Source of the DNA: a virus
Lineage: Duplodnaviria > Caudoviricetes
Reading direction: 5' to 3' (one strand)
Virus record (IMG/VR): IMGVR_UViG_3300021400_001327
Span: 43,315 to 107,314 of that record
DNA length: 64,000 nucleotides
Below the pieces are notes generated by a model that made no database searches, was not told the origin of the DNA, and saw only the letters and a list, made by a program, of their open reading frames with translations. This document shows positions 15,342 to 60,061 of the stretch, in pieces (positions within the stretch are counted from its first letter, which is position 1; each line of letters opens with the position of its first letter). The translations under genes and the position numbers were made by a program.

Positions 15342-16178
15342 TCACTCGTCGTCGTCAGTGTCGAGCGCGTACTGGTAGCTGAGTTCCATGCTCTTCACGG
15401 CAGTTTTGCCTAGTACAAAATCAGAAACACCGCGCCGGAGACTGCTGGTACGCGGGAGCCGACATCCGATGTAAGCCATCGTGGTCGTCTGGTTCGCGTG
15501 ACGAAGCATCAGGGATGTGTCCGCCATAGCGAGCGCCGCGTTCTGGATGTCTCGGGACGTAGAGGCTATCGTGTTGGCGATGGTGGCGAAGGTCTTACGC
15601 ATCGTGTGTGTAGAGGTCCTGAGGTATGGAGCCGCTGCGCGTAAGCCGGTACGCAATAACCGGTTGGCGGCGTCGGTCGCCATCGGGGTTTTGCCCTTGC
15701 CTTTGTTCGAGGCGAAGAGGTAGTTGTCCTGGGTGAACGGCATGGTCCAGCGGCACTCGTTGATGTAGAGGCTGACGTACTGCTTGATGGCGTCCGTGAT
15801 CAGCATCTCGTCGTCCTGAGAGCAGGTGCGCTTGCCGGTCTTGATCTCGATGATGTCGATAGCCCGCCTGAACGTGATGGGGTTCGTGGAGATCAGAAGG
15901 TCGGATACCTTGAGAGCGCAGAGGTCAGAAATACGAAGGCCGGTACATACACCAGTCACGAACATAGCGGCTTCCCTGAACTTGCGCTGGGAGAGGAAGT
16001 GATCGATGACCGCCTTTACCTGAGCATAGGACTCAAGGGGCTGCGCGGCCTTGATGGCAGAGACGCCCTTCGCCAACTGCTTCTGGCGCGGGGTAAGATT
16101 TTCGTCCTCTACGGTATAAGCCAGAGAGGTCATGTTCACAGAGTCCGCGCCGGGGAACGCAATGATCTTACCGCTCAT
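15342..16178 (-). CDS. Tyrosine recombinase
   Basis: GLRISDL (R), KT (K), HTMR (HxxR), LRH, TTMAY (Y); no obvious N-terminal arm-binding domain. Confidence 0.9.
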   Translation of the reverse strand: MSGKIIAFPGADSVNMTSLAYTVEDENLTPRQKQLAKGVSAIKAAQPLESYAQVKAVIDHFLSQRKFREAAMFVTGVCTGLRISDLCALKVSDLLISTNPITFRRAIDIIEIKTGKRTCSQDDEMLITDAIKQYVSLYINECRWTMPFTQDNYLFASNKGKGKTPMATDAANRLLRTGLRAAAPYLRTSTHTMRKTFATIANTIASTSRDIQNAALAMADTSLMLRHANQTTTMAYIGCRLPRTSSLRRGVSDFVLGKTAVKSMELSYQYALDTDDDE

Positions 16179-34042: not shown

Positions 34043-35018
34043 GTGCATAAAAATTAGTGGTGATTGCTTTGGGCAGAAAGAAATTAGAGACGCCGGAAAA
34101 ATATTGCGAGAATTGTGGGAAGAAGTTGGAGAGAAGACCTTTAAAGAATGGATACTTAGAGCCATTATTTCACTTCAACAAGAGAAAATACTGTTCAATA
34201 CAGTGTTGCAGTGCTATGCAATCGAGGGAAAAGCTCCTGTGCCCACCAAAGACAGCAAAGACGAGCAGACAGAGGGCGAGAAAGATTGTAGAGCAGGGAA
34301 CGTGTGTGATGTGCGGGGCGCAAACACGGACAGAAGTGCACCATATAGATCACAATCCTATGAACAATACGCCAGAAAATTTGATGAGATTGTGTTCCAA
34401 GTGTCATCACGCCCAGCACAAAAACGACCGACAGAAACCTTTATGTGTTGTTTGCGGGGAGCCGCAGAAGGGGCACCATTTATGCTCAAAACACTGGCAA
34501 GCATGGAGAAAGAGCTTAAAAAGAGGATGGGATACAGAATACACATTGATGATAAAACAATGTTTGATAGATGCGGGGCTGTGAGCGTCTGGGATGCCCG
34601 TGGGAATGGCGACGGAGAGACTTCTCCTACCATCACAGGCGACCACAACAACAGGATCACCGACTACACCGCCGTCATTGTGGAATCGAAACCGAGCACC
34701 CACTACTTCTCTATGCAGCGCTTCGATGAATTCAAGGAGAGCGATGCGGCGTCCACCCTCAAACAGCGGGACTACAAAGACGTGACAGATATCGTGGTCG
34801 AGGAACGAGAACCAATACAGGAACGCAAGTACATCGTCCGGCGGCTGACGCCCACGGAAAGCCTGAGTCTTAATGGTTTGCCGAAATGGTGGTGCGATGA
34901 TGTGAAAGGCCGTTCGGATACAGCGGTATATAAGCTGTCCGGAAACGCAATAGCGATTCCGTGTGCTGTAGATGTGTTGGAAAAAATCGAACGGGCTTAC
35001 AGGAGAGATTTGAGATGA
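33648..35018 (+). CDS. C5 methyltransferase C-terminal/beta-type chain in an alternative frame (start uncertain)
   Basis: SLSQILEVNVPEKYYL; RRLTPTE..LNGLP and YKLSGNAI (motifs IX and X). Confidence 0.7.
   Translation: MPQTTGIQGLQSGKTLAAPLAPTMEQTSKPSSKRSVRSQEPTFMYLSLKSTKEGGQKPEPSWEMVSRLPGVSTTPSVGAFPSVERESSLSQILEVNVPEKYYLTARASLGILRRAWKRGKNLPEVLNNALVECIKISGDCFGQKEIRDAGKILRELWEEVGEKTFKEWILRAIISLQQEKILFNTVLQCYAIEGKAPVPTKDSKDEQTEGEKDCRAGNVCDVRGANTDRSAPYRSQSYEQYARKFDEIVFQVSSRPAQKRPTETFMCCLRGAAEGAPFMLKTLASMEKELKKRMGYRIHIDDKTMFDRCGAVSVWDARGNGDGETSPTITGDHNNRITDYTAVIVESKPSTHYFSMQRFDEFKESDAASTLKQRDYKDVTDIVVEEREPIQERKYIVRRLTPTESLSLNGLPKWWCDDVKGRSDTAVYKLSGNAIAIPCAVDVLEKIERAYRRDLR
34057..34584 (+). CDS. 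HNH endonuclease overprinted within the methyltransferase ORF
   Basis: CENC, KYCSIQC, CVMC..EVHHIDHNPMNN.PENLMRLCSKCH. Confidence 0.85.
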   Translation: MVIALGRKKLETPEKYCENCGKKLERRPLKNGYLEPLFHFNKRKYCSIQCCSAMQSREKLLCPPKTAKTSRQRARKIVEQGTCVMCGAQTRTEVHHIDHNPMNNTPENLMRLCSKCHHAQHKNDRQKPLCVVCGEPQKGHHLCSKHWQAWRKSLKRGWDTEYTLMIKQCLIDAGL

Positions 35019-35659
35019 ACAATTACAATTCAGGAGTAATGGATTTATGGCATGCACTGAAAATGGTTTGGCAGGAGATGCCGACCTCCGCCGTTTGCGG
35101 GATGTTTGGTTGGGGTGAGTCATACGATTTTGATTTCGATGATGTCCTTTGTGAAGATCCGATGACCATGATAACAAAGGTCAAGGAATACGAACAGAGA
35201 AAAAACCCGACAAAGAAACAGGTCATCGCGGCGCTGAAGTGCCTCGGCAACCCAGAGTCGGACTCGTGGGATTATAAGAAATGCTTAGAAACAGGGTGTC
35301 CGTTCGCCAGTAATGAGGATGGATGCGCGGCGCCTATCACACAAAGCCTCTTCAAGTATTTTCCAGAGCTTTGTGATGACGGCGCTGATAAACCTGTCAA
35401 AGCCCGCCCAATAAAAAAGCATGAGTTGTCGTTGTTGAAGCCCGGAGATAAGGTCTGGTGGACACTGTGTGATTGTGAACAGAAGCCGGATTGTGAGACT
35501 ATCACCTATATCAACAAGAACATCATACGCTATGAGCCCGGTCATGGATTTGACGTCGTCGATAATTACGCAAAGGAGAATGGTTTTATTCTGTGGTATG
35601 ACGAGCCAACAGAGGAAGACATCGACGGTGTCGATTTGAAAGGATTGCGCGATGACTGA
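35015..35659 (+). CDS. Hypothetical protein
   Basis: ATG overlaps methyltransferase stop (MNNYNSG). Confidence 0.6.
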   Translation: MNNYNSGVMDLWHALKMVWQEMPTSAVCGMFGWGESYDFDFDDVLCEDPMTMITKVKEYEQRKNPTKKQVIAALKCLGNPESDSWDYKKCLETGCPFASNEDGCAAPITQSLFKYFPELCDDGADKPVKARPIKKHELSLLKPGDKVWWTLCDCEQKPDCETITYINKNIIRYEPGHGFDVVDNYAKENGFILWYDEPTEEDIDGVDLKGLRDD

Positions 35660-35957
35660 TAACGGGATGCCTGACAGGGAGAAGGTTATCAGGGCCGTTG
35701 AAACTTGTTTTGATAGCTGGATTGATAAGCACCGGAACATAGGTCTTGATTTGCATGAAGTCGAGCGGTTGAAACGAGAAGCGCTGGAGATGCTGAAAGA
35801 GCAGGAAGCTGTTGAACCAAAACTTGTCGATGTAAACACATGGACTTGTGGTGAATGTGGTGCGTTGATCGGTTGGGAGGAATTTGCACAGTCAGGATTG
35901 GAACTGGTCAAGTACAAGTTCTGCACGGAATGCGGAAGGGCGGTGAAATGGGGATGA
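35652..35957 (+). CDS. Zn-ribbon protein
   Basis: WTCGEC...KFCTECGRAVKW; paralogue of 36460-36780. Confidence 0.7.
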   Translation: MTDNGMPDREKVIRAVETCFDSWIDKHRNIGLDLHEVERLKREALEMLKEQEAVEPKLVDVNTWTCGECGALIGWEEFAQSGLELVKYKFCTECGRAVKWG

Positions 35958-36931
35958 CATATTCTTCGATTGAAAAAATCCGACCGAAAGCGAGTATCCA
36001 ATGGGACAATGGCAACGACGGGCGGGATGGGCGTTATTATATCGAATATCGCTGCCCCGTGTGCGGTCGAAGGATATTCTATTATGGGCGCGATAACGCA
36101 TGTGATCAGTGCGGAACATTTTACGATTGGGGAAAGCGTGAACCAGTCATCGAAATAACGAGGTGCGTGAAATGGGATGAGTGACCAATATAATACAGAC
36201 GGGATAATGGTTTTCCAAAAGGCAAGTCAAAGACCTGTAACAGATAACGCCTTTGAAAGCATTGAACGCGCAATAGCGTTTGACGTGAGAGACTGGTCTC
36301 AAGACCGGAGAAGTGCATGGATCTATGCCATCGTGTTCGGCTGGGAGTACGAGGACGCCTGGGATGAAGTGGCTAAGAAATTCGGCTGGGATGAAGAAGA
36401 CCGTAAAAGAGCACGCTCACTGCATGTGCAATGGGAAATGGCAAAGGCGGTGAAGTGGGATGCCTGACCGGGAAAGGGTCATTTACGATCTTGAACGATG
36501 TACGTGCCACGTTCCGGACGCTTGCCGGGATTGCTCAAAATACGCCAGCGGAACCGTGATGAAATGCATGGAAAGCCTGATGATGGACGCGTTGGAACTG
36601 CTGAAAGAGCAAGAACCAGTTAAACCAACAGTCAACGTTGATACTTGGATTTGTTCCGAATGCGGTCATACATTAGAAAGTCAAGAACTTATTGATGACA
36701 ATGAGAATCCTCAGGTGCTTATCCATGAGCAATATAATTATTGCCCGAACTGCGGAAAGGCGGTGAAGTGGGATGAGTGAATACACAGGAGGGCCGCTTG
36801 ACAGATTAGCCGATTTGTTCATGAGAGCACTGAGAACGGATGACCCTCAAACGAAAGCCAATTTAATCAATGAATGGAACGAAGAAATCAAGTTTATCAA
36901 TTCTGTATTAAAAGGATGGTGAAGTGTGATG
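35936..36931 (+). repeat. Five copies of junction motif AAGGCGGTGAAGTGGGATG
   Basis: Near 35936, 36161, 36443, 36756, 36911; each overlaps a gene end and the next ATG. Confidence 0.75.
36460..36780 (+). CDS. Zn-ribbon protein
   Basis: WICSEC...YCPNCGKAVKW. Confidence 0.7.
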   Translation: MPDRERVIYDLERCTCHVPDACRDCSKYASGTVMKCMESLMMDALELLKEQEPVKPTVNVDTWICSECGHTLESQELIDDNENPQVLIHEQYNYCPNCGKAVKWDE

Positions 36932-37131
36932 AATGAGTACAAAGAAGGACAGTATATCATTTACCAGAACGGCGATAGATTCGAGATCGGGAAGATCAAG
37001 CGCCTCACGCCGACCGGCGCGTTTGTATGGTACTCATGCGGTGATACTGCTGCAAATACCCCGTATGACTGTATGCACCCGATCCAGAATGCTTATGTGA
37101 TCGGCGAGACAGGGCTTGGAGGGTGTATGAC

Positions 37132-37518
37132 ATGAGGCTGATTGATGCGGATGCACTGAAAAAGGAATGGAGCATGGGCCTTGGATCATGTAATGATTGC
37201 CCACAGAACACGAGAAGATGTCAATTAGACATGGATTTTACGCGAATGGATATTTGCGGGATGATTGACGATGCTCCAACCGTTGGCGGCTGGATCAGCG
37301 TTAAGGACAGATTGCCGGAAACACGTCATGCTGTACTTGTGTACACGCCGCATTATAAAAACATATGGGCGGCTTCAATGCACGAAGACGGGAATTGGTG
37401 TATATGGTCACCACACAGCGGAGTATATTTGGACCCAGATTGGCACGGGCCGATCACCCATTGGATGCCGCTGCCAGAACCTCCAAAAAGCTTAAATAGG
37501 AGTTTATATTATGGATAA
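37132..37518 (+). CDS. DUF551-domain protein
   Basis: MRLIDADAL, WISVKDRLPE, ITHWMPLPEPP. Confidence 0.75.
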   Translation: MRLIDADALKKEWSMGLGSCNDCPQNTRRCQLDMDFTRMDICGMIDDAPTVGGWISVKDRLPETRHAVLVYTPHYKNIWAASMHEDGNWCIWSPHSGVYLDPDWHGPITHWMPLPEPPKSLNRSLYYG

Positions 37519-38110
37519 TTGCCCTATCTGTAAGTTGAAAATTGGCGAAAAAACAGTTCAAAGTCCAATTGCGCCGTCCCTGTGTTGGCTTGAAACAAGT
37601 CGAAGTAAAAACGGATATATCATTATGAAATTTGGATATGGCGACGATTATGAACACATTTTCTATAGCCCGCGGTATTGTCCAGAGTGCGGGAAGAAAA
37701 ATGAGCCAGTTACCTAAATAGGAGTTTTGAACATGACCCGTAGAAACACATTTATACCGTTAGAAATTCAATGCTTCTGGTGTAACGGGCAAATGGAAAG
37801 AGGGACGGTTATATCTGGTGAACTCAATTGCGTGACGTATTTTTGCGAGCGATGTGGTGGAGTATCACACTTCGCAGTAAATGACAAGCAGAGAATAAGC
37901 AGTATTGAAGTTGAGTATAAATCGCCAGACAAAGGGACTCAAATAGGAGGATAAGCGCGATGGATTGTCCGTGGTATTTAGGGTTTCAGGCCACAGAAGA
38001 ATGCCTCAAAACATGCACCATCACAGAAGAAAACCGGGATTATTCGATATGCCCCGAAAGCACCAGCGAAGATGATGTTTATATGGACATGGCTTAAAAT
38101 AGGAGTTTGT

Positions 38111-38209
38111 ATGATATATCACTTGAGCTGTCCATATTGCTTCCATCTTTGGTGGAGTAAAAATGGATTTCCTAAAAGATGTCCAAAGTGTAGAAAACAA
38201 CTTAAATAA
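38111..38209 (+). CDS. 32-aa Zn-ribbon cassette protein
   Basis: CPYC...CPKC between two sites. Confidence 0.6.
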   Translation: MIYHLSCPYCFHLWWSKNGFPKRCPKCRKQLK

Positions 38210-38537
38210 CACTATTGATGGGTGGGTAAGATGAAAGCCAAACAGTATTTTGAAAAATACGGGGAATCAATCTGGAAAGAAGCCAACGAGCCCGATGTTC
38301 ATACTGATGGGCCGATAGCACAGATGTTCATCGAATTCGCATCTGAAATGAAAGAGATTATAACCCGCAGAAACGCGAAAACCGATAATGCGGTAATGGC
38401 TATCATTTCAGAACAGAACCAAAAATGGAATTCAGTTGTCAATATGTTTGTGAAGCAATATGGAATTTCACCGATTTCAAGAGATGGATTCGCAAAAGGA
38501 TTCAAACAACAGCTTGGAATTTAAATAGGAGTTTAGA

Positions 38538-38768
38538 ATGGCTGATTATCACGTTGGTGCTGGCGAAATAACTGGAGAAATCTATGCTGGCGTGTTGTCG
38601 AAAGACGGCAAATCATGGAGAAACCGTTCGATTGTAACTGATGCGGCAATCTGTGCTGTACGGGATCATCTCATCAATCAAATGAATCAAAGCAATCAAG
38701 ATTGGTTTGGTTATGAGTGGTCACGAAAAGACGGCAAGAAGGTCGTATTGAGCATTGCAGTCAAATAA
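38538..38768 (+). CDS. Cassette protein (copy 1 of MADYHVG...)
   Basis: Near-identical to 57764-57994. Confidence 0.8.
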   Translation: MADYHVGAGEITGEIYAGVLSKDGKSWRNRSIVTDAAICAVRDHLINQMNQSNQDWFGYEWSRKDGKKVVLSIAVK

Positions 38769-39159
38769 TTTAAATCGGAGTTTATAGCATGAAAGCAATT
38801 ATAAAATTTACCGCCTGTCTTGAATGTGATATTGATGACAAACTTCGAGACAAGATAGTTTCGAAAGATGAACAGGTCAAACAGCTAAAAAGCCTGTTAA
38901 CGGAAGAATGCGATTGCGAGCAAGTTGAAATAAGCGAGTATCACGTAGAACTCAAATAGGAGTTTAAGCAATGAAGCGAACACCACAAAATTGCACGGTT
39001 GCTGATAGAGTTTATTCCCGCGATGGACATGATAGGTACGTTGGCGATAAATGTGCTGGTGTACGGATTGCTGTTGGTTGGGATGGCGATGAGCCGATTG
39101 ATACTTGTAAAAAATGCAAGTATTTCTATATGTTTGATGAGGATGAGGAAACTTAAATT

Positions 39160-39726
39160 ATGGATTTAGGAGCCTACGCACAGATTGAAAATATTAGCAA
39201 AATCATGACAGACAACGGAATCGCTGTTCCAAGACTGCGCGGACTCAGGCTGATGAGTCAGGAAAAAGCAATTTCTACAGACGAAATTTCAGAGTCTGCC
39301 AATCAATTGGGCCTACAAGAATGTGAAGCTCTCTGCGAGTCAGACTTCCGACTAAACGCACACATTTTCGAATGTTCAAATAGAACCCGCCGGATCAGGC
39401 GAAAATATCTGAAGTATGACGATGATCAATTCACGCCTGTCGGAGTTAGATGGGATCACATCCATGGCAAAAAGCGCAAGAAGTTCAAGTACGTTATCAA
39501 AGCCGCTTATCAGCGTACGCGTGAACAGCTTGAATTATTCAATCGCTATTGCGGCAGGCCTGATGTTCTCTACATCCACGCAAGAATCGGTGGCGGAAAC
39601 TGGCCGTATTACTGTAACGAGGTAAAGAATCAGCCGTGGTTCATCTGCAAAATCGACGATGCCTTTGATTCCACCTACTGCGACATTTACGCCGCGATCA
39701 AACCGCCGGAGGAGAGCCATGGCTGA
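39160..39726 (+). CDS. Hypothetical protein
   Basis: 188-aa ORF, YIHARIGG, DSTYCDIYA. Confidence 0.7.
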   Translation: MDLGAYAQIENISKIMTDNGIAVPRLRGLRLMSQEKAISTDEISESANQLGLQECEALCESDFRLNAHIFECSNRTRRIRRKYLKYDDDQFTPVGVRWDHIHGKKRKKFKYVIKAAYQRTREQLELFNRYCGRPDVLYIHARIGGGNWPYYCNEVKNQPWFICKIDDAFDSTYCDIYAAIKPPEESHG

Positions 39727-39877
39727 CGAAGAAAGAGAGCAGAAGATTCATGAAGCGCTTCATGTCCACCATGACAAGGTAAAAGAAAAATACCATACGG
39801 TTATGACTGTTCCTTGTGGAAGCCAGAACTATAGGCTGGATACGGAAAGCAGTGATTATGACACTTTAGGAGCTTAG
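39719..39877 (+). pseudogene. Truncated nucleotidyltransferase fragment
   Basis: GSQNY.LD...SDYDT, then stop within a TTTAGGAGCTTAG site-like sequence. Confidence 0.6.
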
Positions 39878-40559
39878 AGGAGTAAAAATGGCACAGATAA
39901 AGACTTTTCCAAGGGACTGTACGAAAAAATGCCCACACTATAAAACGTGGGATATGTCCGTGGACGACTGGACATCATACTGCGATTTGCTGAAAGAGCA
40001 GGTTGATGATTGCGACGAGGATTACATTCGGTTTCGTTGTCCGCTGGATGCAACTGTGGAATATGCAGACCAACCAACATTGCAACCAGCGACTTAAATT
40101 GAACCAAAGTCAACGAAAGGAGCTCGCGAGATATGTTGGAACGATTCTACAGATTCAGACACAAGCTATTCGATCTGATCGAGAAGGTGGATGATGGATA
40201 TCATAAGAGCTATGAAGGAGCGATGGAAGTACGGTTCCACTACCCAAACATATTTGAAGATGAACCGGTAGAGAAGGTCGACTTTGTAGAAATCGAAGTG
40301 CATTGCTATCTGCTGATAAACGGACGGCACATCACGTTTGAGGGCAAGACGTTCGACGATGCTTTGGATAAAGCAGAAGCGTGGCTTGAGCGTGTGACGG
40401 AAGAGGAAGGTTTCTGATAATGATTCCACTGCTGCTCATTGGTTTTCTTCTTGTCGTTGTTGCTGGCGTCTGGCTGTTGATTATGACGGACGAAGAAGCG
40501 TTCTGGTTATCAACGACGTTGCGGTCGCACGAGTCTGACTGATTCAAAAGGAGACAGAA

Positions 40560-40904
40560 ATGGTGATCAATCCATCTACAGTTTATTGGATGAACGTGCT
40601 GTGTCATGTGCGGGAAATCGTACAGGTACTGATGATATCGTCTGCTATTTTTTGCACGATATCGCTTATATGTGGTTGGATAATCGATGACGAACAAGAA
40701 AAGGCATGGTGTCGGACCTTTGCCTGCATTATGGCTATCATCTGCCTCGTTATGATTTTCCTATACATATTCATACCGGATAAACAGACCCTGGCAGAGA
40801 TCATGCTGGCCAAACACATCCGTGTTGATGAGACTGGGTGGACCCCAAAGCTGGTAAGAGAGACAGCGGATTACGTCGTCAAGGCGTTCAAGCAAATCAA
40901 GTGA
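40560..40904 (+). CDS. Membrane protein
   Basis: Two hydrophobic helices. Confidence 0.65.
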   Translation: MVINPSTVYWMNVLCHVREIVQVLMISSAIFCTISLICGWIIDDEQEKAWCRTFACIMAIICLVMIFLYIFIPDKQTLAEIMLAKHIRVDETGWTPKLVRETADYVVKAFKQIK

Positions 40905-40912
40905 GGTGTGTT

Positions 40913-41365
40913 ATGAAGATAATCGATTTTGAGAAGAAAGGGAATGTCGTCAGGTTCTACCTCGGTCAGGATAATCTGGAAGACTGGTACGGCGATGACT
41001 GGAATGACAGGCCATACGAGTACAACGCCGGAACTGTGTACGATGAGTTTCTTGCTGGATACAGAGATATCGCGTTCGATTTTGACTCGGTTGTTCTGGA
41101 GCCAAAGGATGACTATGAAAACCGCGGCAATTCAAAGTACTGTAAAGACGATATGCGGAACAGGGATGTGCCGTGCATCATTGTTGTGCCTGACGATGTT
41201 ATTGAGGACAATTGTTGTAGGGATGAATTCAATAGGTACGTTGGCAGCGACCGTGTAACAAAATTCTACTTTGGCGACAGGATGGAGCCTGACTATGTAT
41301 ACGATGCTCCACCGAAGCGTGATGAAAACTATAGGCTGATCGCAAAACCGGCCAACGGGGGTTGA
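40913..41365 (+). CDS. Hypothetical protein (MKIIDFEKKGNVVRFYLG)
   Basis: GAGGTG RBS; YGDDWNDRPYEYNAG. Confidence 0.7.
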   Translation: MKIIDFEKKGNVVRFYLGQDNLEDWYGDDWNDRPYEYNAGTVYDEFLAGYRDIAFDFDSVVLEPKDDYENRGNSKYCKDDMRNRDVPCIIVVPDDVIEDNCCRDEFNRYVGSDRVTKFYFGDRMEPDYVYDAPPKRDENYRLIAKPANGG

Positions 41366-41369
41366 TAAA

Positions 41370-42272
41370 ATGCAGGAAGTGAAGCACAACGGAATCACCA
41401 AGTATATCTACCAGCGTCTTCTGGCCTTCATCGGAAACCCGTATGGGGTCGCCGGATTGATGGGCAACCTCTACGCGGAATCAGGTCTGCGCTCTGACAA
41501 CCTTCAGAACAGCTTCGAGCAGAAGCTCGGTATGACAGACGAAGAGTATACAGACGCCGTCACGAACGGCACGTATACGAAATTCGCCAACGACGGTGCT
41601 GGATACGGCTTGGCGCAGTGGACCAATAGTGCCCGGAAACAAAATCTGCTTGGTCTGTCGAAAGCGATAGGCGCGGCCATTGACAGTGTGGAGATGCAAA
41701 TCATTTTCCTGATCCTTGAGCTCCAGAATTACTCACTCGTATGGAACGTCCTGACAAAAACGTCAAGTTCGTATGAAGCGTCTGATGCGGTATTGGAACA
41801 CTACGAGAAACCGGCTACGATAACTGACTCCTCGCGGGACAACAGGCGTTCGTTCAGCGTACAGTACTATCAGCTGTATGGGAGCGATGAAAAAATAGCT
41901 TACAGTAATGATGAATCTGTCATGTTTGCTGGTGTGCTGAAGCGTGGAAGTCGTGGTGCTGATGTCAGGACGCTCCAGCAGCAACTGAAAAGGCTTGGCT
42001 ATGCTGGCGGAACGCTTGCTGTGGACGGTGCATATGGAGAGAAAACGGGAGCGGCTGTCAGTGAGTTTCAGAGGGATTACCACCTGTACTCTGACGGAAA
42101 AGCTGGGGCTGTCACACAGTATGTGCTCAAGCTTCAAGAGCGTGATGGATCGAGATACACAGTTGTGATTGGCAACCTCGATTTCACAAGCGCAATGGAG
42201 CTTTATCACAAGTATAAAGACGCAATCATCAGAGAGGGACATGTCGATGCAAAAAATTCCGACTTTGTTTAA
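41370..42272 (+). CDS. Phage tail-lysozyme-type muramidase with peptidoglycan-binding domain
   Basis: GLMGNLYAES, GYGLAQWT; LKRGSRG.DV..LQ..L..LGY...VDG.YG..T..AV..FQ. Confidence 0.85.
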   Translation: MQEVKHNGITKYIYQRLLAFIGNPYGVAGLMGNLYAESGLRSDNLQNSFEQKLGMTDEEYTDAVTNGTYTKFANDGAGYGLAQWTNSARKQNLLGLSKAIGAAIDSVEMQIIFLILELQNYSLVWNVLTKTSSSYEASDAVLEHYEKPATITDSSRDNRRSFSVQYYQLYGSDEKIAYSNDESVMFAGVLKRGSRGADVRTLQQQLKRLGYAGGTLAVDGAYGEKTGAAVSEFQRDYHLYSDGKAGAVTQYVLKLQERDGSRYTVVIGNLDFTSAMELYHKYKDAIIREGHVDAKNSDFV

Positions 42273-42840
42273 GCGCGAGTTTATCGACCGCCATGTTGTT
42301 AAAATTCTGCCGGAAGTCACGCCTGGGCTGGAATGGGTGTTGCTTGGCGGCGGTATCCCCACGGTCAAGTATGACGGCGCCTGCTGCGCGATCATTGACG
42401 GTGTGTTCTATAAGCGCTATGACGCGAAACGGAACAAGGATGGCATCCAGAAGTCTCCCCCGCCGGGAGCTATTCCGTGCTGCGACCCAGACCCCGTGAC
42501 CGGTCACTGGCCGCACTGGGTAAAGATAGACGCGGGGAAACCGGAAGACAGATGGTTCATTGAGGCTTACATAAACACGGGGCGCGACCGTGAACTTACA
42601 GACGGAACGTATGAGGCCGTCGGTCCACACTTTCAAGGCAACCCGTATCACTTGAATTTTGAACACCTTATCAAGCACGGCGAGGACGTTATCCGTCTTC
42701 CAGACCGTAGCTTTGAAGCTATCAAGGAATACCTGCAATGGAATCACATTGAGGGCATCGTCTTTTGGAAGGATGGCAAGCCGGAATGCAAAATCAAACG
42801 TTCGGACTTCGGCTTCCCGTGGCCGATTCTTAAATGTTAA
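42241..42840 (+). CDS. DUF5565-like (RNA-ligase-like) protein
   Basis: KIPTLFKR, KYDG, GTYE.VGP, EGIV, KIK. Confidence 0.6.
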   Translation: MSMQKIPTLFKREFIDRHVVKILPEVTPGLEWVLLGGGIPTVKYDGACCAIIDGVFYKRYDAKRNKDGIQKSPPPGAIPCCDPDPVTGHWPHWVKIDAGKPEDRWFIEAYINTGRDRELTDGTYEAVGPHFQGNPYHLNFEHLIKHGEDVIRLPDRSFEAIKEYLQWNHIEGIVFWKDGKPECKIKRSDFGFPWPILKC

Positions 42841-43049
42841 CGATTTGTTAAGTTGGTGTCCGCAAAAAGACTTAATTTGCGGACGTCCATAAAAATGGCA
42901 GGTCGGAATCATAAACGCCTGATAGCACACGATATTTGTGAGCAGGCTTTCTAAAAATAGCCGGACAAACCTGTCCTGTACAAACACGCGGCTTGTCCGT
43001 TAACATAAATATGCGATCGCAAACGACGGAAAAAGAAGGAGAAGAGAGA

Positions 43050-44126: not shown

Positions 44127-44165
44127 GCCGCCTTTGTCTCTGTTATTGGATCTAACCAATTATTA

Positions 44166-44195
44166 TGTATCCCCGATACTGTATCACCCTGTATC
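44166..44195 (+). promoter_or_regulatory. Three TGTATC boxes upstream of the replication operon
   Basis: TGTATC at 44166, 44180, 44190; shares TGTATCACCC and TGTATCATC with the 6485-6532 site. Confidence 0.55.
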
Positions 44196-44211
44196 ATCGA
44201 AAGGAGAACGC

Positions 44212-44973
44212 ATGGAAAACAAAGAGGATATCATGTCGATGAACCTGTATCAACGTCTGGCGAAAGTCAGAGATATCGCTGACGTCGTGCAAAAGAACAA
44301 GTCCGGCTATGGCTACAAGTACACGTCGGAAGACGAGATTCTGGCCAAGGTCAAAGCTGGCATGACGAAGTATCGTGTATCTATCTATCCAAGAGTGGAC
44401 ACGGAATGCTTCAATAGCCAGCCGCGCAACTACGAAAAAATGAAGTACGACAAGGCTGCTGGCAAGAACGTGACCACTACCGAAACAGAATGGCTGGTGG
44501 ACGGGACGGTCGTTTATTCCGTTATCAACGATGACGATCCTAACGACCGCTTTGAAGTGACGTGGCCTATCTGCGGTTCGCAGTCAGACAAAGCACAGGC
44601 GTTTGGCTCAGCGCTGACTTATGCCAATCGTTACTTCTACCTGAAGTTCTTCAATATTGCCACATCCGAGGACGACCCCGACGAGTGGAAGCGAAAGAAG
44701 ATGGAAGCGGCTGACGCGGAAGACGAGGCCGCAGCCAAGGTGGTTGTGCAGAAAATCGACGAGCTCTGCCGTGGTGGAATCACCGAAGAGAACAAGCAAG
44801 ACATCATCAAGCTGGTCAAGAAGTACGCCAGGGATGGCGGGAAACCGTCAGGTAATTACCTGCTGATCAAGAAGCTGGATGACGCTAATGCCCTGTACAC
44901 GGAACTGCGGCAGTTCTTCGATGGAACGGGAACAAAAACCAAGAAGACCGAAAAGAAAGAGGAGGCCAAGTAA
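44212..44973 (+). CDS. erf: ERF-family ssDNA annealing protein
   Basis: KNKSGYGYKY, AQAFGSALTYANRY, EDDPD. Confidence 0.85.
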   Translation: MENKEDIMSMNLYQRLAKVRDIADVVQKNKSGYGYKYTSEDEILAKVKAGMTKYRVSIYPRVDTECFNSQPRNYEKMKYDKAAGKNVTTTETEWLVDGTVVYSVINDDDPNDRFEVTWPICGSQSDKAQAFGSALTYANRYFYLKFFNIATSEDDPDEWKRKKMEAADAEDEAAAKVVVQKIDELCRGGITEENKQDIIKLVKKYARDGGKPSGNYLLIKKLDDANALYTELRQFFDGTGTKTKKTEKKEEAK

Positions 44974-45470: not shown

Positions 45471-46226
45471 ATGAGCTCACTGATTTACGACGACTGGACG
45501 TGGTCCTACAGCCGACTCAGCCTGTTCAATCAGTGCCCGTATGCGTTCGCGCTGAAATACCTGTATGGGGAAACGTCACAGTCAAACCAATATGCAGAGT
45601 TCGGCTCTTATATCCATAGTATACACGAGCAGTTTTACAATAAGGAATTGAAAGAGTCTGAGCTTGTCCCCTATTACATCGAACACTTCAGCGAAGTGAA
45701 CAGCCGTATGAGCGGCGAAGCGAGAAGTAAATACTTCCTTGATGGTCTCAACTACTTTGAGGGCGGGATACGGGTTGTCCCGTCCTCAATCATTGGTGTC
45801 GAAAAGGTTATCAACTTCAAAGTTGCCAACTACAGGTTTGTTGGAATCATCGACCTGTTGTATCGGAATGAGGACGGTTCACTGACCATCCTGGATCATA
45901 AGTCCCATAACCTAAAACCAAGGTCTGGCCGCGTCAAGCCGACTGCAACGGACAGGGAGTTGGATGACTATCTAAAACAACTCTATTTGTACGCTCACGG
46001 CGTTCATCAGCTGGGGTTAGGAAATGTCAGCACCCTTACGTTCAATTGCTTCAGGGGTTCTCAGATTATCGAAAACAGATATTCTAAAGCCAAGGAAGAC
46101 GAGGCCGTTGAATGGGCGGTCAACACCATCGGGAAGATAGAGGATGCGACCGTCTTCGATCCGCGTCCAGACTGGTTCTACTGCCGCAATCTATGTGATT
46201 GCCGGGGCATCTGCGAGTACAAATAA
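45471..46226 (+). CDS. PD-(D/E)xK (Cas4/RecB-like) exonuclease
   Basis: WSYS..QCP, GIIDL, ILDHKS, QLYLY, C-terminal Cys cluster. Confidence 0.85.
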   Translation: MSSLIYDDWTWSYSRLSLFNQCPYAFALKYLYGETSQSNQYAEFGSYIHSIHEQFYNKELKESELVPYYIEHFSEVNSRMSGEARSKYFLDGLNYFEGGIRVVPSSIIGVEKVINFKVANYRFVGIIDLLYRNEDGSLTILDHKSHNLKPRSGRVKPTATDRELDDYLKQLYLYAHGVHQLGLGNVSTLTFNCFRGSQIIENRYSKAKEDEAVEWAVNTIGKIEDATVFDPRPDWFYCRNLCDCRGICEYK

Positions 46227-57282: not shown

Positions 57283-57301
57283 GTGTGTTAATCAGGAGTT
57301 T

Positions 57302-57452
57302 AAGCGGTGGCGAAATATGTAGACGCTTACACTATGCCGGTTGATATGACATATGTCTTATCTTCTAAGAAGAGCTACGGCACGTTACCACCTGTGGTCC
57401 CAAATCGGCCGTTGGAATGCTCTTTATGTGAGGTGCAAATCCTCACCTGCTT
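57302..57452 (+). ncRNA. tRNA-like RNA with large insert
   Basis: AAGCGG/CTGCTT acceptor stem, Leu-type D-arm, GTGAGG-TGCAAAT-CCTCAC T-arm. Confidence 0.65.
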
Positions 57453-57469
57453 AACGAAATAACATTTTT

Positions 57470-57559
57470 ATGCGGTGGTGCAAGCATAGCACTCCGCCGG
57501 GGTGTAGGCGTAGTAGCCGATAGCCGGGGGCAATGTCAGGTGAAATGCCTGTCCCGCAT
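57470..57559 (+). ncRNA. tRNA-like RNA
   Basis: ATGCGG/CCGCAT, GTGC/GCAC D-arm, GTCAGG-TGAAATG-CCTGTC. Confidence 0.55.
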
Positions 57560-57763
57560 TAAATAGGAGCTTTGTAGAATGGAAGGAATCTGTGACAACT
57601 GCCGGAATGCAGAACAATGCGACAGTGCTAAAACAATGATTGGCATCAGAATTGAATGCAGTATGTTTCTACCAAAGGACAGAGTACCTTATGAGGATGA
57701 GATAACGGGCTTTGTTTCAACAGTAAAGCAGTGTAACAAGAAGGCTTAAATAGGAGCTTTGAA

Positions 57764-57994
57764 ATGGCTGATTATCATGTTGGCACTGGTGAAATAACTG
57801 GAGAAATCTATGCTGGCGTATTAGCGAAAGACTGCAAATCATGGCGCAGTCGTTCGATTGTGACAGATGCGGCAATCTGTGCTGTACGGGATCATCTCAT
57901 TAATCAAATGGAGCAAAGCAAGCAAGATTGGTTTGGTTATGAGTGGTCACGGAAAGACGGCAAGAAGGTCGTATTGAGCGTTGCCGTCAAATGA
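57764..57994 (+). CDS. Cassette protein (copy 2 of MADYHVG...)
   Basis: Near-identical to 38538-38768. Confidence 0.8.
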   Translation: MADYHVGTGEITGEIYAGVLAKDCKSWRSRSIVTDAAICAVRDHLINQMEQSKQDWFGYEWSRKDGKKVVLSVAVK

Positions 57995-58869
57995 CTCAAA
58001 TAACACTTGTACTGCGGTGGCTACGAAGGATGGGGATTGGATAGCGTAATTGATGGGTATCCGCAGATGGTTAAAATTAGGAGCATAAACCATGAACGAC
58101 ATTGATTCTATGCCGCCGAAATGTCATGATTGTCCTTATTGGGAGATGTGCGAAGAACCGTATATATGCCCAACGCAAGATGAAAAGAAGGAACTTGAAT
58201 AACACTTTGGTTAGAGCCTGACACGCCTCTGATGACGGTGATTCAAGCGGACCACGTTAGGACATTTGGCAGAGAATGCCGTCACGTTCTCTGCGACTTC
58301 AATAGGAGTTTTGTATGATTGGACTAAAGAGTTCCATGCCTGATAAATGCCTTTGTTGTCCATGTCTCCATACCATATTGGTAGACGGTATGGCAGTTCG
58401 TTTCTGTATGGCTAAACACAGGGACATCGTTATTATATCAGAAAACGAAGTAAAGAATTCCTCAGAGTGGATGAACTTTCCGAAACCGGATTGGTGTCCC
58501 TGGGTTGAAGTAAATTAAACAGGAGAATAAAATGACAGGGCAAGAATTGATAGAATACATTATAAACAATCATCTGGAAAATTATATCGTTGTAGTGTCT
58601 CAAGAAGTTGGTGAAAGCAGTTATCCAGCAAGAGAAATCGAAATAGACAATACTCTAAAGACATTTGAGATAACATAAATTAAATAGGAGTTTTGATTAT
58701 GACAGTAAAAGAATTGATTGAAAAACTGAAAAAGGAGAACCCTGATGCGTTGGTTTATACAATAGATACTTCAGACGATGATATCGCGCTGATTGTAACC
58801 AAAGTTAGCAGGAATATTCTTGAAGGGAAAGACGAGACAGTTACAATACATTAAACAGGAGAACAAAGT

Positions 58870-59214
58870 ATGAAAGACTATAGTTTTGCCCAACAGACAG
58901 ATGAACTCAAGAGGCTAATCGCAGAGCATCCAGATTATCAAATCGTAGTGCTTGCAGGCGAGGAGGCATACATCGGCGATTATGCGTGGACGTGCTGTAG
59001 TGATGTCAGGTTTGCTATTGGTGAAATCTTAGACACGGACTATTACGATTATGACGATGCCATTATTACCGATAGAGAGAGACTGGAAGAAATAATAGAA
59101 GATCGTCTTTATGATGAGTTTGAGAGCGATGAACTGGACAAGGCCGTGAAAGACAAGATGGCGGAGCTTGAACCGTATTGGAAGAATGTTATTTTTATAT
59201 ACGCAACAAACTAA
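58870..59214 (+). CDS. Acidic hypothetical cassette protein
   Basis: 114-aa ORF between two sites. Confidence 0.7.
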   Translation: MKDYSFAQQTDELKRLIAEHPDYQIVVLAGEEAYIGDYAWTCCSDVRFAIGEILDTDYYDYDDAIITDRERLEEIIEDRLYDEFESDELDKAVKDKMAELEPYWKNVIFIYATN

Positions 59215-59225
59215 AATAGGAGCTT

Positions 59226-59435
59226 AAGCGGTGGCGGAACAGGTAGACGCAGAGATCAGACTTGACTGGTAGTAATCGGCGCGTAGGCCCATGTGGCGGA
59301 TGTGGATGCGACACCACTGTTAAAAAAGCATAACGGTTGCGCTGGTGCCAAACGAGGAGCGTACAGGCTGAAAGCTCCCGCCAATCAGGGGTTGCTTCAA
59401 ATCCAGTCATGTGAGGTGCAAATCCTCACCCGCTT
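59226..59435 (+). ncRNA. tRNA-like RNA with large insert
   Basis: AAGCGG/CCGCTT, GGCGGAACAGGTAGACGC, T-arm identical to the 57302 unit. Confidence 0.65.
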
Positions 59436-60061
59436 TAACGTAAATAGGAGGATAAACTATGCAGGGAAATGTAACCAAAGAAATATGCTTGACACTTGAC
59501 CAATGGGAAAAAGTGAAAAATGCGCTCAATTTTTACGAATGCGCTGCCGTTGAGTTTTTATCAATTACTGACAGGGAGAATTTCAGCGAAGAATACATCA
59601 TACCTATATATAATCAACTGCCTGACGAGGTTTTCTAAGCGTCTTAAATTAGGAGTTTTTATATCATGGCTATGGATTACATTCCAGATGACTGTACTTG
59701 TTGTATGTATTTGGACAAATGTGGCGTATGTCAAAAATATAACAAGAAAGCGGTTAATCCAGATGATTTATCAGACCCGTTCGCGGAAATAGAGAAACCA
59801 GATTGGTGCAATATTGGAGAGCAAGAGTGTAATTAAATAGGAGTTTAAATGATTAAGTGGATAAAACGTATGCTTGAATTGCACAGAAAACGAAAGACCT
59901 GTTATTTCAGGACGAGACCATACTTTCATCCGCCTTGCAAGTATCCAAATAATGAAGAATGTAAATTGTGTAGGTATAAAAAGTAAATGTTCTTTTAGTC
60001 AAACACGATTTACCAAATCTTGATTATATAAATCGACATTATATATTAAGGAGGTGAAGCT

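Follow-up and report, generated by a model that had tools for sequence, protein, structure and literature searches.

A translational junction of about 15 nucleotides that probably doubles as a crossover point between small-gene cassettes of an animal-gut phage

The 64,000-nucleotide (nt) stretch of DNA analyzed here (hereafter the window) corresponds to bases 43315-107314 of IMGVR_UViG_3300021400_001327, a complete 107,314-bp IMG/VR virus genome with direct terminal repeats. It contains two arrays of small genes, array 1 at window positions 37492-39159 and array 2 at 57290-59986, in which neighboring units are separated by copies of one short sequence built around the Shine-Dalgarno (SD) core AGGAG. 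We consider it probable that this sequence is a translational junction of about 15 nt which doubles as a short-homology crossover point. The motif is restricted to the two arrays, the genes that it separates are under purifying selection, and genomes that are nearly identical to the window differ here by whole cassettes (A1 to A8 in array 1, B numbers in array 2) whose junctions lie inside the motif.

Allowing for up to two mismatches, the core of the motif, AAATAGGAGTTT, was found 20 times in the window as compared to 3.98 ± 1.96 times in shuffled sequences, and none of 100 shuffles reached 20. When the full 107,314-bp genome was scanned, the true sites fell into two clusters only, seven sites at window 37494-38965 and ten at 57290-59846, all on the + strand, and no gene outside the two arrays was preceded by the motif, in agreement with a first-pass annotation of the sequence which had stated that most other genes in the window use ribosome-binding sequences without such arms. 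The consensus given in that annotation, TTAAA-TAGGAG-TTTAA, was reproduced by a position matrix of the 19 in-array sites and again by one of 47 unique sites from ten sources. Over these 47 sites the AAA/TTT triplets and the T at position -2 are conserved at 85-98% and the outer arm letters at 50-77%, and at least four of the five arm pairs are complementary in 23 of the 47, so that the palindrome originally described holds for the consensus but is weak at individual sites. The arms could form 3-5 A-U pairs at most, and the letters around AGGAG add no pairing with the standard anti-SD sequence at 16S rRNA 3′ ends.

The ATG follows GGAG at a distance of 5-10 nt, and the array junctions measure 3-21 nt. 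Genome-wide, ten + strand copies of the left arm, TTAAATA, were counted and none on the − strand; the arrays, with 5% of the genome, account for seven of the ten. A variant junction, in which the same left arm is followed by AACAC in place of an SD, is present at 38202, twice in array 2 and also in the phage sequences L016, L017 and L149. An inverted-repeat search revealed no recurring hairpin at the junctions, no attC-like repeat and no recurring inverted repeat upstream of the sites, in keeping with the earlier statement that attC hairpins are lacking. Between 34500 and 41000, promoter-like sites (11 compared with 11.4 expected) and terminator-like sites (6 compared with 5.6 expected) are not in excess and none lies at a junction, suggesting that the genes are probably carried on one transcript, each with its own SD.

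Both arrays are low-GC islands (GC 0.39-0.40 compared with about 0.51). Array 1 comprises eight small open reading frames (ORFs) of 68, 73, 45, 32, 97, 76, 56 and 61 amino acids (aa), which are mutually unrelated by BLASTP and six of which carry CxxC-type cysteine pairs, bearing out the initial description of eight unrelated and frequently Cys-rich ORFs; genes and sites are all on the + strand. Site 1 (37492-37507), a full consensus copy, is followed by the zinc-ribbon-like A1 (37511-37717, 68 aa), and site 2 (37714-37729), whose left-arm TAA is the stop of A1, by A2 (37733-37954, 73 aa), likewise zinc-ribbon-like and with two CxxC pairs. Site 3 (37939-37954), in which GAT replaces TTT, precedes A3 (37960-38097, 45 aa), and site 4 (38094-38110), which has an extra A in the left arm and provides the TAA stop of A3, precedes A4 (38111-38209, 32 aa), a putative zinc ribbon. 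By sequence reading, site 5 (38202-38213) is the non-SD variant of left arm plus AACAC; its TAA ends A4, and A5 (38231-38524, 97 aa) follows. The left-arm TAA of site 6 (38521-38536) ends A5, and behind this site lies A6 (38538-38768, 76 aa), which matches DUF7446 (Pfam PF24233, E 2e-15). Site 7 (38770-38785), the TCGGAG variant, is followed by A7 (38789-38959, 56 aa), and site 8 (38952-38967), whose spacer TAG is the stop of A7, by the ORF A8 (38971-39156, 61 aa). The array closes with a half-site consisting of the left arm (39152-39158, from the left-arm scan), which holds the TAA stop of A8. A3, A5, A7 and A8 are without family match. Sites 1-4 and 6-8 were identified by the motif scan, sites 3, 4, 6 and 7 also in sample contigs, and the two spacer variants noted at first are those of sites 7 and 5.

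The earlier proposal that arm or spacer often supplies the upstream stop holds for A1, A3, A4, A5, A7 and A8, but not for A2, A6 and the DUF551 gene in front of the array, whose stops fall elsewhere. Use of the stop codons was also considered as the full reason for the conservation of the left arm and was rejected, neither stop being used at seven or more of about 20 sites. At site 4 alone, an imperfect inverted repeat (38063-38155; 27 nt, 70% complementary, 39 nt apart) brackets the site from the end of A3 to the start of A4.

The DUF551 gene on the left flank (37123-37518, + strand; Pfam PF04448, E 5.8e-13) supports the view that site 1 was placed at the usual end of this gene, as the profile match stops at residue 122, the K of PEPPK, and the homologue in L017 has its stop within the left arm of its own site. 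In the window the DUF551 frame passes through site 1 (37480-37518) and gains a 9-aa tail, because the site lies in a stop-free frame; in L149 (1610-1807) the frame stays open into the next cassette, possibly giving a fusion protein. Owing to this read-through, the original statement that any order of cassettes stays translatable holds only roughly.

The exchange of cassettes is most directly seen in three close relatives, L149, L011 and L028, all collinear with the window where flanking sequence was compared (2-5 kb to each side of the arrays). The flanks of L149, a metagenome contig of 106 kb, share 98-99.6% identity with the window. At site 1 it contains an inserted block of 613 nt, which holds three small ORFs and is bounded by a site at either end. 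Its A4 and A5 are 100% and 96% identical to those of the window at the amino acid level, and behind A5 the two sequences agree up to and including the left arm of site 6 and are unrelated immediately beyond it, the entire segment from A6 to about 40100 having been swapped for other cassettes; the right breakpoint adjoins a further copy of the left arm at 40093. One of these other cassettes is B10 of array 2 (window 59835-59985), found at 98% identity in array 1 of L149. The converse arrangement is seen in L011, which is 97-99% identical to the window around array 2. Here A1 is placed directly behind the first array-2 site, with homology (93.6% at the nt level) covering exactly 37492-37727, and the alignment confines the crossover to nine letters of the site common to both contexts, which makes site 1 the crossover point. 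L011 further carries B10 at the front of the array, an additional small ORF and a tRNA-Ile gene. In L028 (98-99% identical) the segment 57456-58675 is missing, and the missing segment ends at a site.

Similar differences were encountered within a population. The public runs that contain sequence of this phage are animal gut metagenomes, with no RNA run among them, which we used as assembled Logan contigs; the four runs with most of the stretch derive from one sample, probably the source of the genome, and joints with fewer than 30 letters on a side were excluded as unreliable. Contigs of runs X2 and X4 lack A3, the deletion extending from site 3 to site 4 (37940 to 38097) with seven shared letters at the joint (68 letters or fewer on the shorter side). 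Another variant has 235 other letters in place of A6, the exchange running from site 6 to site 7, at a depth of 84 in one run and with a shorter side of 153-192 letters. Less well supported contigs of the sample place A1 behind A3, or an allele of A7 immediately behind site 1. Thus, in L149, L011, L028 and the population contigs alike, the order of cassettes varies and the breakpoints fall on the sites. The first-pass annotation had proposed site-specific, integron-like shuffling; cassettes are indeed gained, lost, replaced and re-ordered at the sites, but the terms "site-specific" and "integron-like" find no support in our results.

Array 2 (57290-59986, + strand) consists, according to the motif scan, of ten motif sites with ten small ORFs and non-coding tRNA-like units, and swaps cassettes with array 1. 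Each of the tRNA-like units sits as a cassette immediately after a site. Two are located at 57303-57458 and 59227-59436 and shorter kin at 57470-57560 and 58010-58070; they display an acceptor stem, a Leu-type D-arm and a T-arm with the loop TGCAAAT, and their interiors are unrelated. ARAGORN, run with and without introns allowed, found no tRNA in these units, and Rfam gave no match at the gathering score and a single chance-level match, to Mu-gpT-DE, for array 2 at the E-value threshold. The fold of the 219-nt tRNA-like unit is as stable as that of shuffled sequences (z = 0.17). One tRNA-like unit of L011 has a genuine tRNA-Ile(TAT) as its neighbor. The start of the A4-A5 spacer in array 1 (38200-38231) resembles the non-coding unit behind the DUF7446 copy of array 2, and a 10-nt stretch is common to the spacer and the 3′ part of this unit; the spacer may be what a deletion has left of such a unit.

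Seven cassettes (A1, A2, A3, A6, A7, B1 and B10) were also recovered from other phage contexts, where homology stops at the sites. With different neighbors, A2 is present in L070 (89% nt identity over 37715-37949), A3 in L014 (95.7% over 37960-38098) together with B1, A6 in L012, L013, L014, L016 and L017, and A7 in L061 (79% over 38770-38958), and in these more distant phages nucleotide homology extends from site to site and no further. The ratio of nonsynonymous to synonymous divergence (dN/dS) between array-1 cassettes and their homologues in other phages is 0.05-0.27 (0.27 for A1, 0.09 for A2, 0.05 for A3, 0.07-0.17 for A6 and 0.26 for A7), and by this measure the cassettes are real genes under purifying selection. 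In total, 57 sites from ten sources precede 27 unrelated families of ORFs of 28-76 aa, and in the other phages of the same habitat the motif is limited to one tight cluster each, of 3-6 sites within 45-148 kb. An exact 14-mer scan of IMG/VR returned mostly single chance matches and at least two further clustered arrays among the matches listed. No match to window 36000-41000 was obtained by blastn in deposited phage genomes, and searches via the DUF551 gene and a 456-aa gene led to distant or moderately related phages only.

DUF7446 is the sole cassette found in both arrays and the most widespread one among other phages. The two copies, A6 (38538-38768) and its paralogue at 57764-57994, share 91% aa identity (dS 0.30, dN/dS 0.17), and in L017 and L025 a DUF7446 cassette lies directly behind a DUF551 gene. 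We found neither a solved structure nor a paper for this family.

Taken together, these results suggest a model in which arrays 1 and 2 would be hyperplastic stretches of promoterless small accessory genes, probably expressed early and from one transcript. The junction, with an A/T-rich left arm containing TAA, a TAG overlapping the AGGAG SD, the TTT triplet and an ATG 5-10 nt further on, would at the RNA level often terminate the upstream gene and start the following one. At the DNA level, the same sequence would act as a repeat of uniform orientation between unrelated genes, present in both arrays and in co-infecting relatives, and thereby offer a short-homology crossover point. The reaction would most plausibly depend on the ERF-family annealing protein of the phage together with a nuclease, or on replication slippage, and its outcome would be the deletion, insertion, replacement or movement across arrays of whole genes with expression left unbroken. 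In T4-type phages, such a pattern is known to arise by recombination between regulatory motifs that are short and repeated (PMC2839356).

A different explanation, which we regard as unlikely, is that the motif is a translation signal only, kept by selection and perhaps the target of co-regulation by a phage or host factor, and that the turnover of genes results from illegitimate recombination filtered at gene boundaries. Such a signal would account for the AGGAG and its position 5-10 nt upstream of the ATG, and the 7-nt core ATAGGAG and the symmetry of the outer triplets are common to the start-associated sequences (SAS) of mycobacteriophages, which also occur in one orientation and with non-structural genes only (PMC3203893). 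The conservation of the motif, which is intact beside genes with a synonymous divergence of 0.3-1.06 and far exceeds that divergence, may equally be attributed to selection on translation. Furthermore, one gene has been transferred without any motif. This 188-aa gene on the right flank of array 1 (39160-39726, + strand; no family) behaves as a single-gene mosaic module, being 85-87% identical at the nt level to sequence in L008-L010 over exactly 39157-39728, that is, from 3 nt before the ATG to the stop, whereas these phages (about 108-148 kb) have nothing else in common with the window, their flanks being unrelated and the motif absent. In one sample contig, this gene is followed by sequence that opens like the tRNA-like units.

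Several observations argue that the motif is more than a passive ribosome-binding site. It is found before the non-coding tRNA-like units, which have no use for a ribosome-binding site, and it is kept where the upstream stop lies outside the site and beside diverged genes. Inserted blocks have a site on both sides, and the joints are seamless and in register. All three of the cassettes known from multiple locations (A1, B10 and the A6/B2 pair) lie in a motif-bearing array at each location, and convergence of 27 unrelated gene families on one 15-nt context is in itself unlikely.

Other results weigh against a role of the junction in homologous exchange. The tract of identity is only 7-15 nt. 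Annealing proteins normally need a longer tract; rates would be low, and a different mechanism may be at work. The population evidence consists of assembled contigs of one sample. The transfer of the 188-aa gene without a shared motif indicates that ordinary gene-boundary mosaicism operates here too, and, as the intergenic spacers are almost wholly made up of the motif, a breakpoint at a site and one at a gene boundary are indistinguishable by position. Finally, every crossover interval that could be defined also fits a single fixed position, lying between left arm and GGAG; homologous and site-specific exchange are consequently not separable by these intervals, and a site-specific cut is possible.

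That a dedicated phage nuclease or recombinase cuts at this fixed point is nevertheless very doubtful in our judgment. If true, it would represent a minimal phage cassette-exchange system with a 15-bp site and no attC, moving both protein genes and tRNA-like RNA units across arrays and co-infecting phages. We assign a comparably low probability to the wider version of this idea, in which a phage recombinase or nuclease recognizes left arm plus spacer and cuts at one point, as in an integron with the 15-bp site replacing attC. In favor of such a system, the consensus has inverted arms about a 6-bp spacer, the SD-less AACAC-type variants retain the left arm, TTAAATA is confined to the + strand and concentrated in the arrays, and a single point is compatible with all crossover intervals. 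However, the arms of 3-5 bp, loosely conserved beyond AAA/TTT, are too short for a typical recombinase core site, attC-like hairpins are absent, and a by-eye check of the loci that were fetched revealed no gene accompanying the arrays in other phages. Neither array is adjoined by a recombinase; of the two tyrosine recombinases, one is encoded at genome 705-1877 and the other at window 15345-16178, the nearer one being more than 21 kb from array 1, and the better of them reached 43.4 bits with the integron-integrase model TIGR02249, compared to a cut-off of 265. Moreover, an unrelated second type of junction repeat behaves alike. This 18-25-nt stop/start overlap (repeat families D3 and D4; 36167-36936, + strand) is present in four copies (36167-36184, 36450-36467, 36763-36780 and 36919-36936) at the ends of successive small genes, its three full-length copies encode a ..KWDE-type C-terminus, and L149 has an inserted gene of 410 nt between two of the copies, so that general short-repeat recombination would account for both types of junction.

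An inheritance of the arrays as blocks from a lower-GC donor phage in which the motif is the usual ribosome-binding context, with nothing happening at the sites, appears most improbable: the low GC of both arrays and the replacement of 34931-42972 by an unrelated, motif-free 5.1-kb block in L033 would fit with it, but none of the genomes examined has the motif genome-wide, each having one tight cluster, and near-identical genomes differ in single cassettes and not in entire blocks. In the moderately related L033, this exchange of 8 kb for 5.1 kb is framed by conserved blocks on either side, which places array 1 in a hyperplastic region; the replaced segment is bigger than the motif-bearing array.

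Among known systems, the junctions are nearest in form to SAS and nearest in process to the promoter early stem-loop elements (PeSLs) of T4-type phages, and they are a member of neither by sequence or defining parts. SAS of Cluster K mycobacteriophages have the 13-nt consensus GGGATAGGAGCCC, with GGG/CCC arms and an ATAGGAG core 3-7 nt before the ATG, and are of unknown function (PMC3203893). Both are asymmetric sequences of 12-13 nt with outer triplet symmetry around an AGGAG core, and the shared ATAGGAG includes a conserved T unable to pair with 16S rRNA; both stand in one orientation just upstream of the ATG of non-structural genes of many families (27 in our case) and sometimes include the upstream stop. 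In contrast to the GGG/CCC arms of SAS, those described here are AAA/TTT with an extended A/T-rich left arm, and whereas SAS are scattered across half a genome, the present sites are confined to two arrays in which small genes stand back to back. A 17-bp inverted-repeat extension, carried by about half of the SAS, was seen at none of our sites, and a role in gene exchange was not proposed for SAS.

PeSLs are repeated promoter-terminator motifs of hyperplastic regions, at which homologous recombination gives rise to insertions, deletions and mini-circles (PMC2839356, PMC4122927). As in our arrays, short regulatory repeats, all facing the same way, separate small genes that are mostly orphans; genes are inserted, deleted or replaced at the motifs among close relatives (here in L149, L011 and L028), and the motif contains an upstream stop in an A/T-rich stretch and a downstream SD. 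PeSLs, however, are composites of a sigma-70 promoter and a stem-loop terminator that make each gene its own transcription unit, unlike the present translational junction of about 15 nt with neither a promoter nor a terminator signal. They differ further in that our phage is an uncultured 107-kb animal-gut phage with Gram-positive-type lysis genes, that some of its cassettes are non-coding RNA-like units, and that mini-circles have been demonstrated for PeSLs, whereas our evidence of exchange comes from assembled sequences.

With integrons the arrays share promoterless single-gene cassettes of one orientation, a content and order that vary among relatives, and cassettes common to different arrays. 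They differ in the absence of IntI, of any adjacent recombinase and of attC hairpins of 57-141 bp, and in a 15-nt site that also serves as ribosome-binding site. The comparison extends to the linker or boundary-sequence model of phage mosaicism (Susskind and Botstein; boundary sequences in lambdoid phages), which reportedly proposes short conserved sequences at gene borders as points of module reassortment by homologous recombination. To our knowledge, clear natural examples of such linkers are few. The present case differs from that model in having an explicit linker, in about 17 copies in one genome, that is in use among genomes 98-99% identical.

The gene content offers candidates for the enzymes involved. 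A Pfam sweep of 90 ORFs of the genome identified it as that of a large tailed phage that encodes its own DNA polymerase III alpha, DnaB, primase, NrdD, ThyX, dUTPase, PhoH and ClpP. Further matches were to Gram-positive-type lysis domains, to an HNH protein and, among possible recombination functions, to the two tyrosine recombinases, an ERF annealing protein and a PD-(D/E)XK nuclease. The ERF-family single-strand annealing protein (44134-44970, + strand; PF04404, E 1.7e-18) is encoded 5 kb downstream of array 1 and is a candidate for the recombination enzyme. Its likely partner is the product of a Cas4-like nuclease ORF (45471-46223, + strand) with a weak match to TIGR00372 (E 1.6e-4, 21.6 bits compared to a cut-off of 65); one ORF of the genome matched PF12705 (E 1.3e-24), and the Cas4-like ORF is probably this single PD-(D/E)XK match. 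A search of bacterial genomes with the integrase gave one irrelevant match of 25%, and the host was not identified.

Whether phage mosaicism arises from random illegitimate joins sieved by selection or from recombination at short conserved linkers is a matter of debate, for which this locus provides a clean natural case for the linker answer, with one 15-nt junction in about 17 copies, whole-gene differences exactly at this junction in genomes 98-99.6% identical, and cassettes that cross between arrays 20 kb apart. For synthetic operons, the junction also provides a natural model of a standard connector. By connecting phenomena that have been described separately, namely SAS motifs and PeSL shuffling repeats, the locus suggests that SAS-like motifs may serve gene exchange besides translation. 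In uncultured phages, junctions of this kind flag the accessory genes with a fast turnover, likely host-takeover or counter-defence factors, and an accessory role of this nature would also be expected for the small zinc-ribbon proteins encoded in the arrays.

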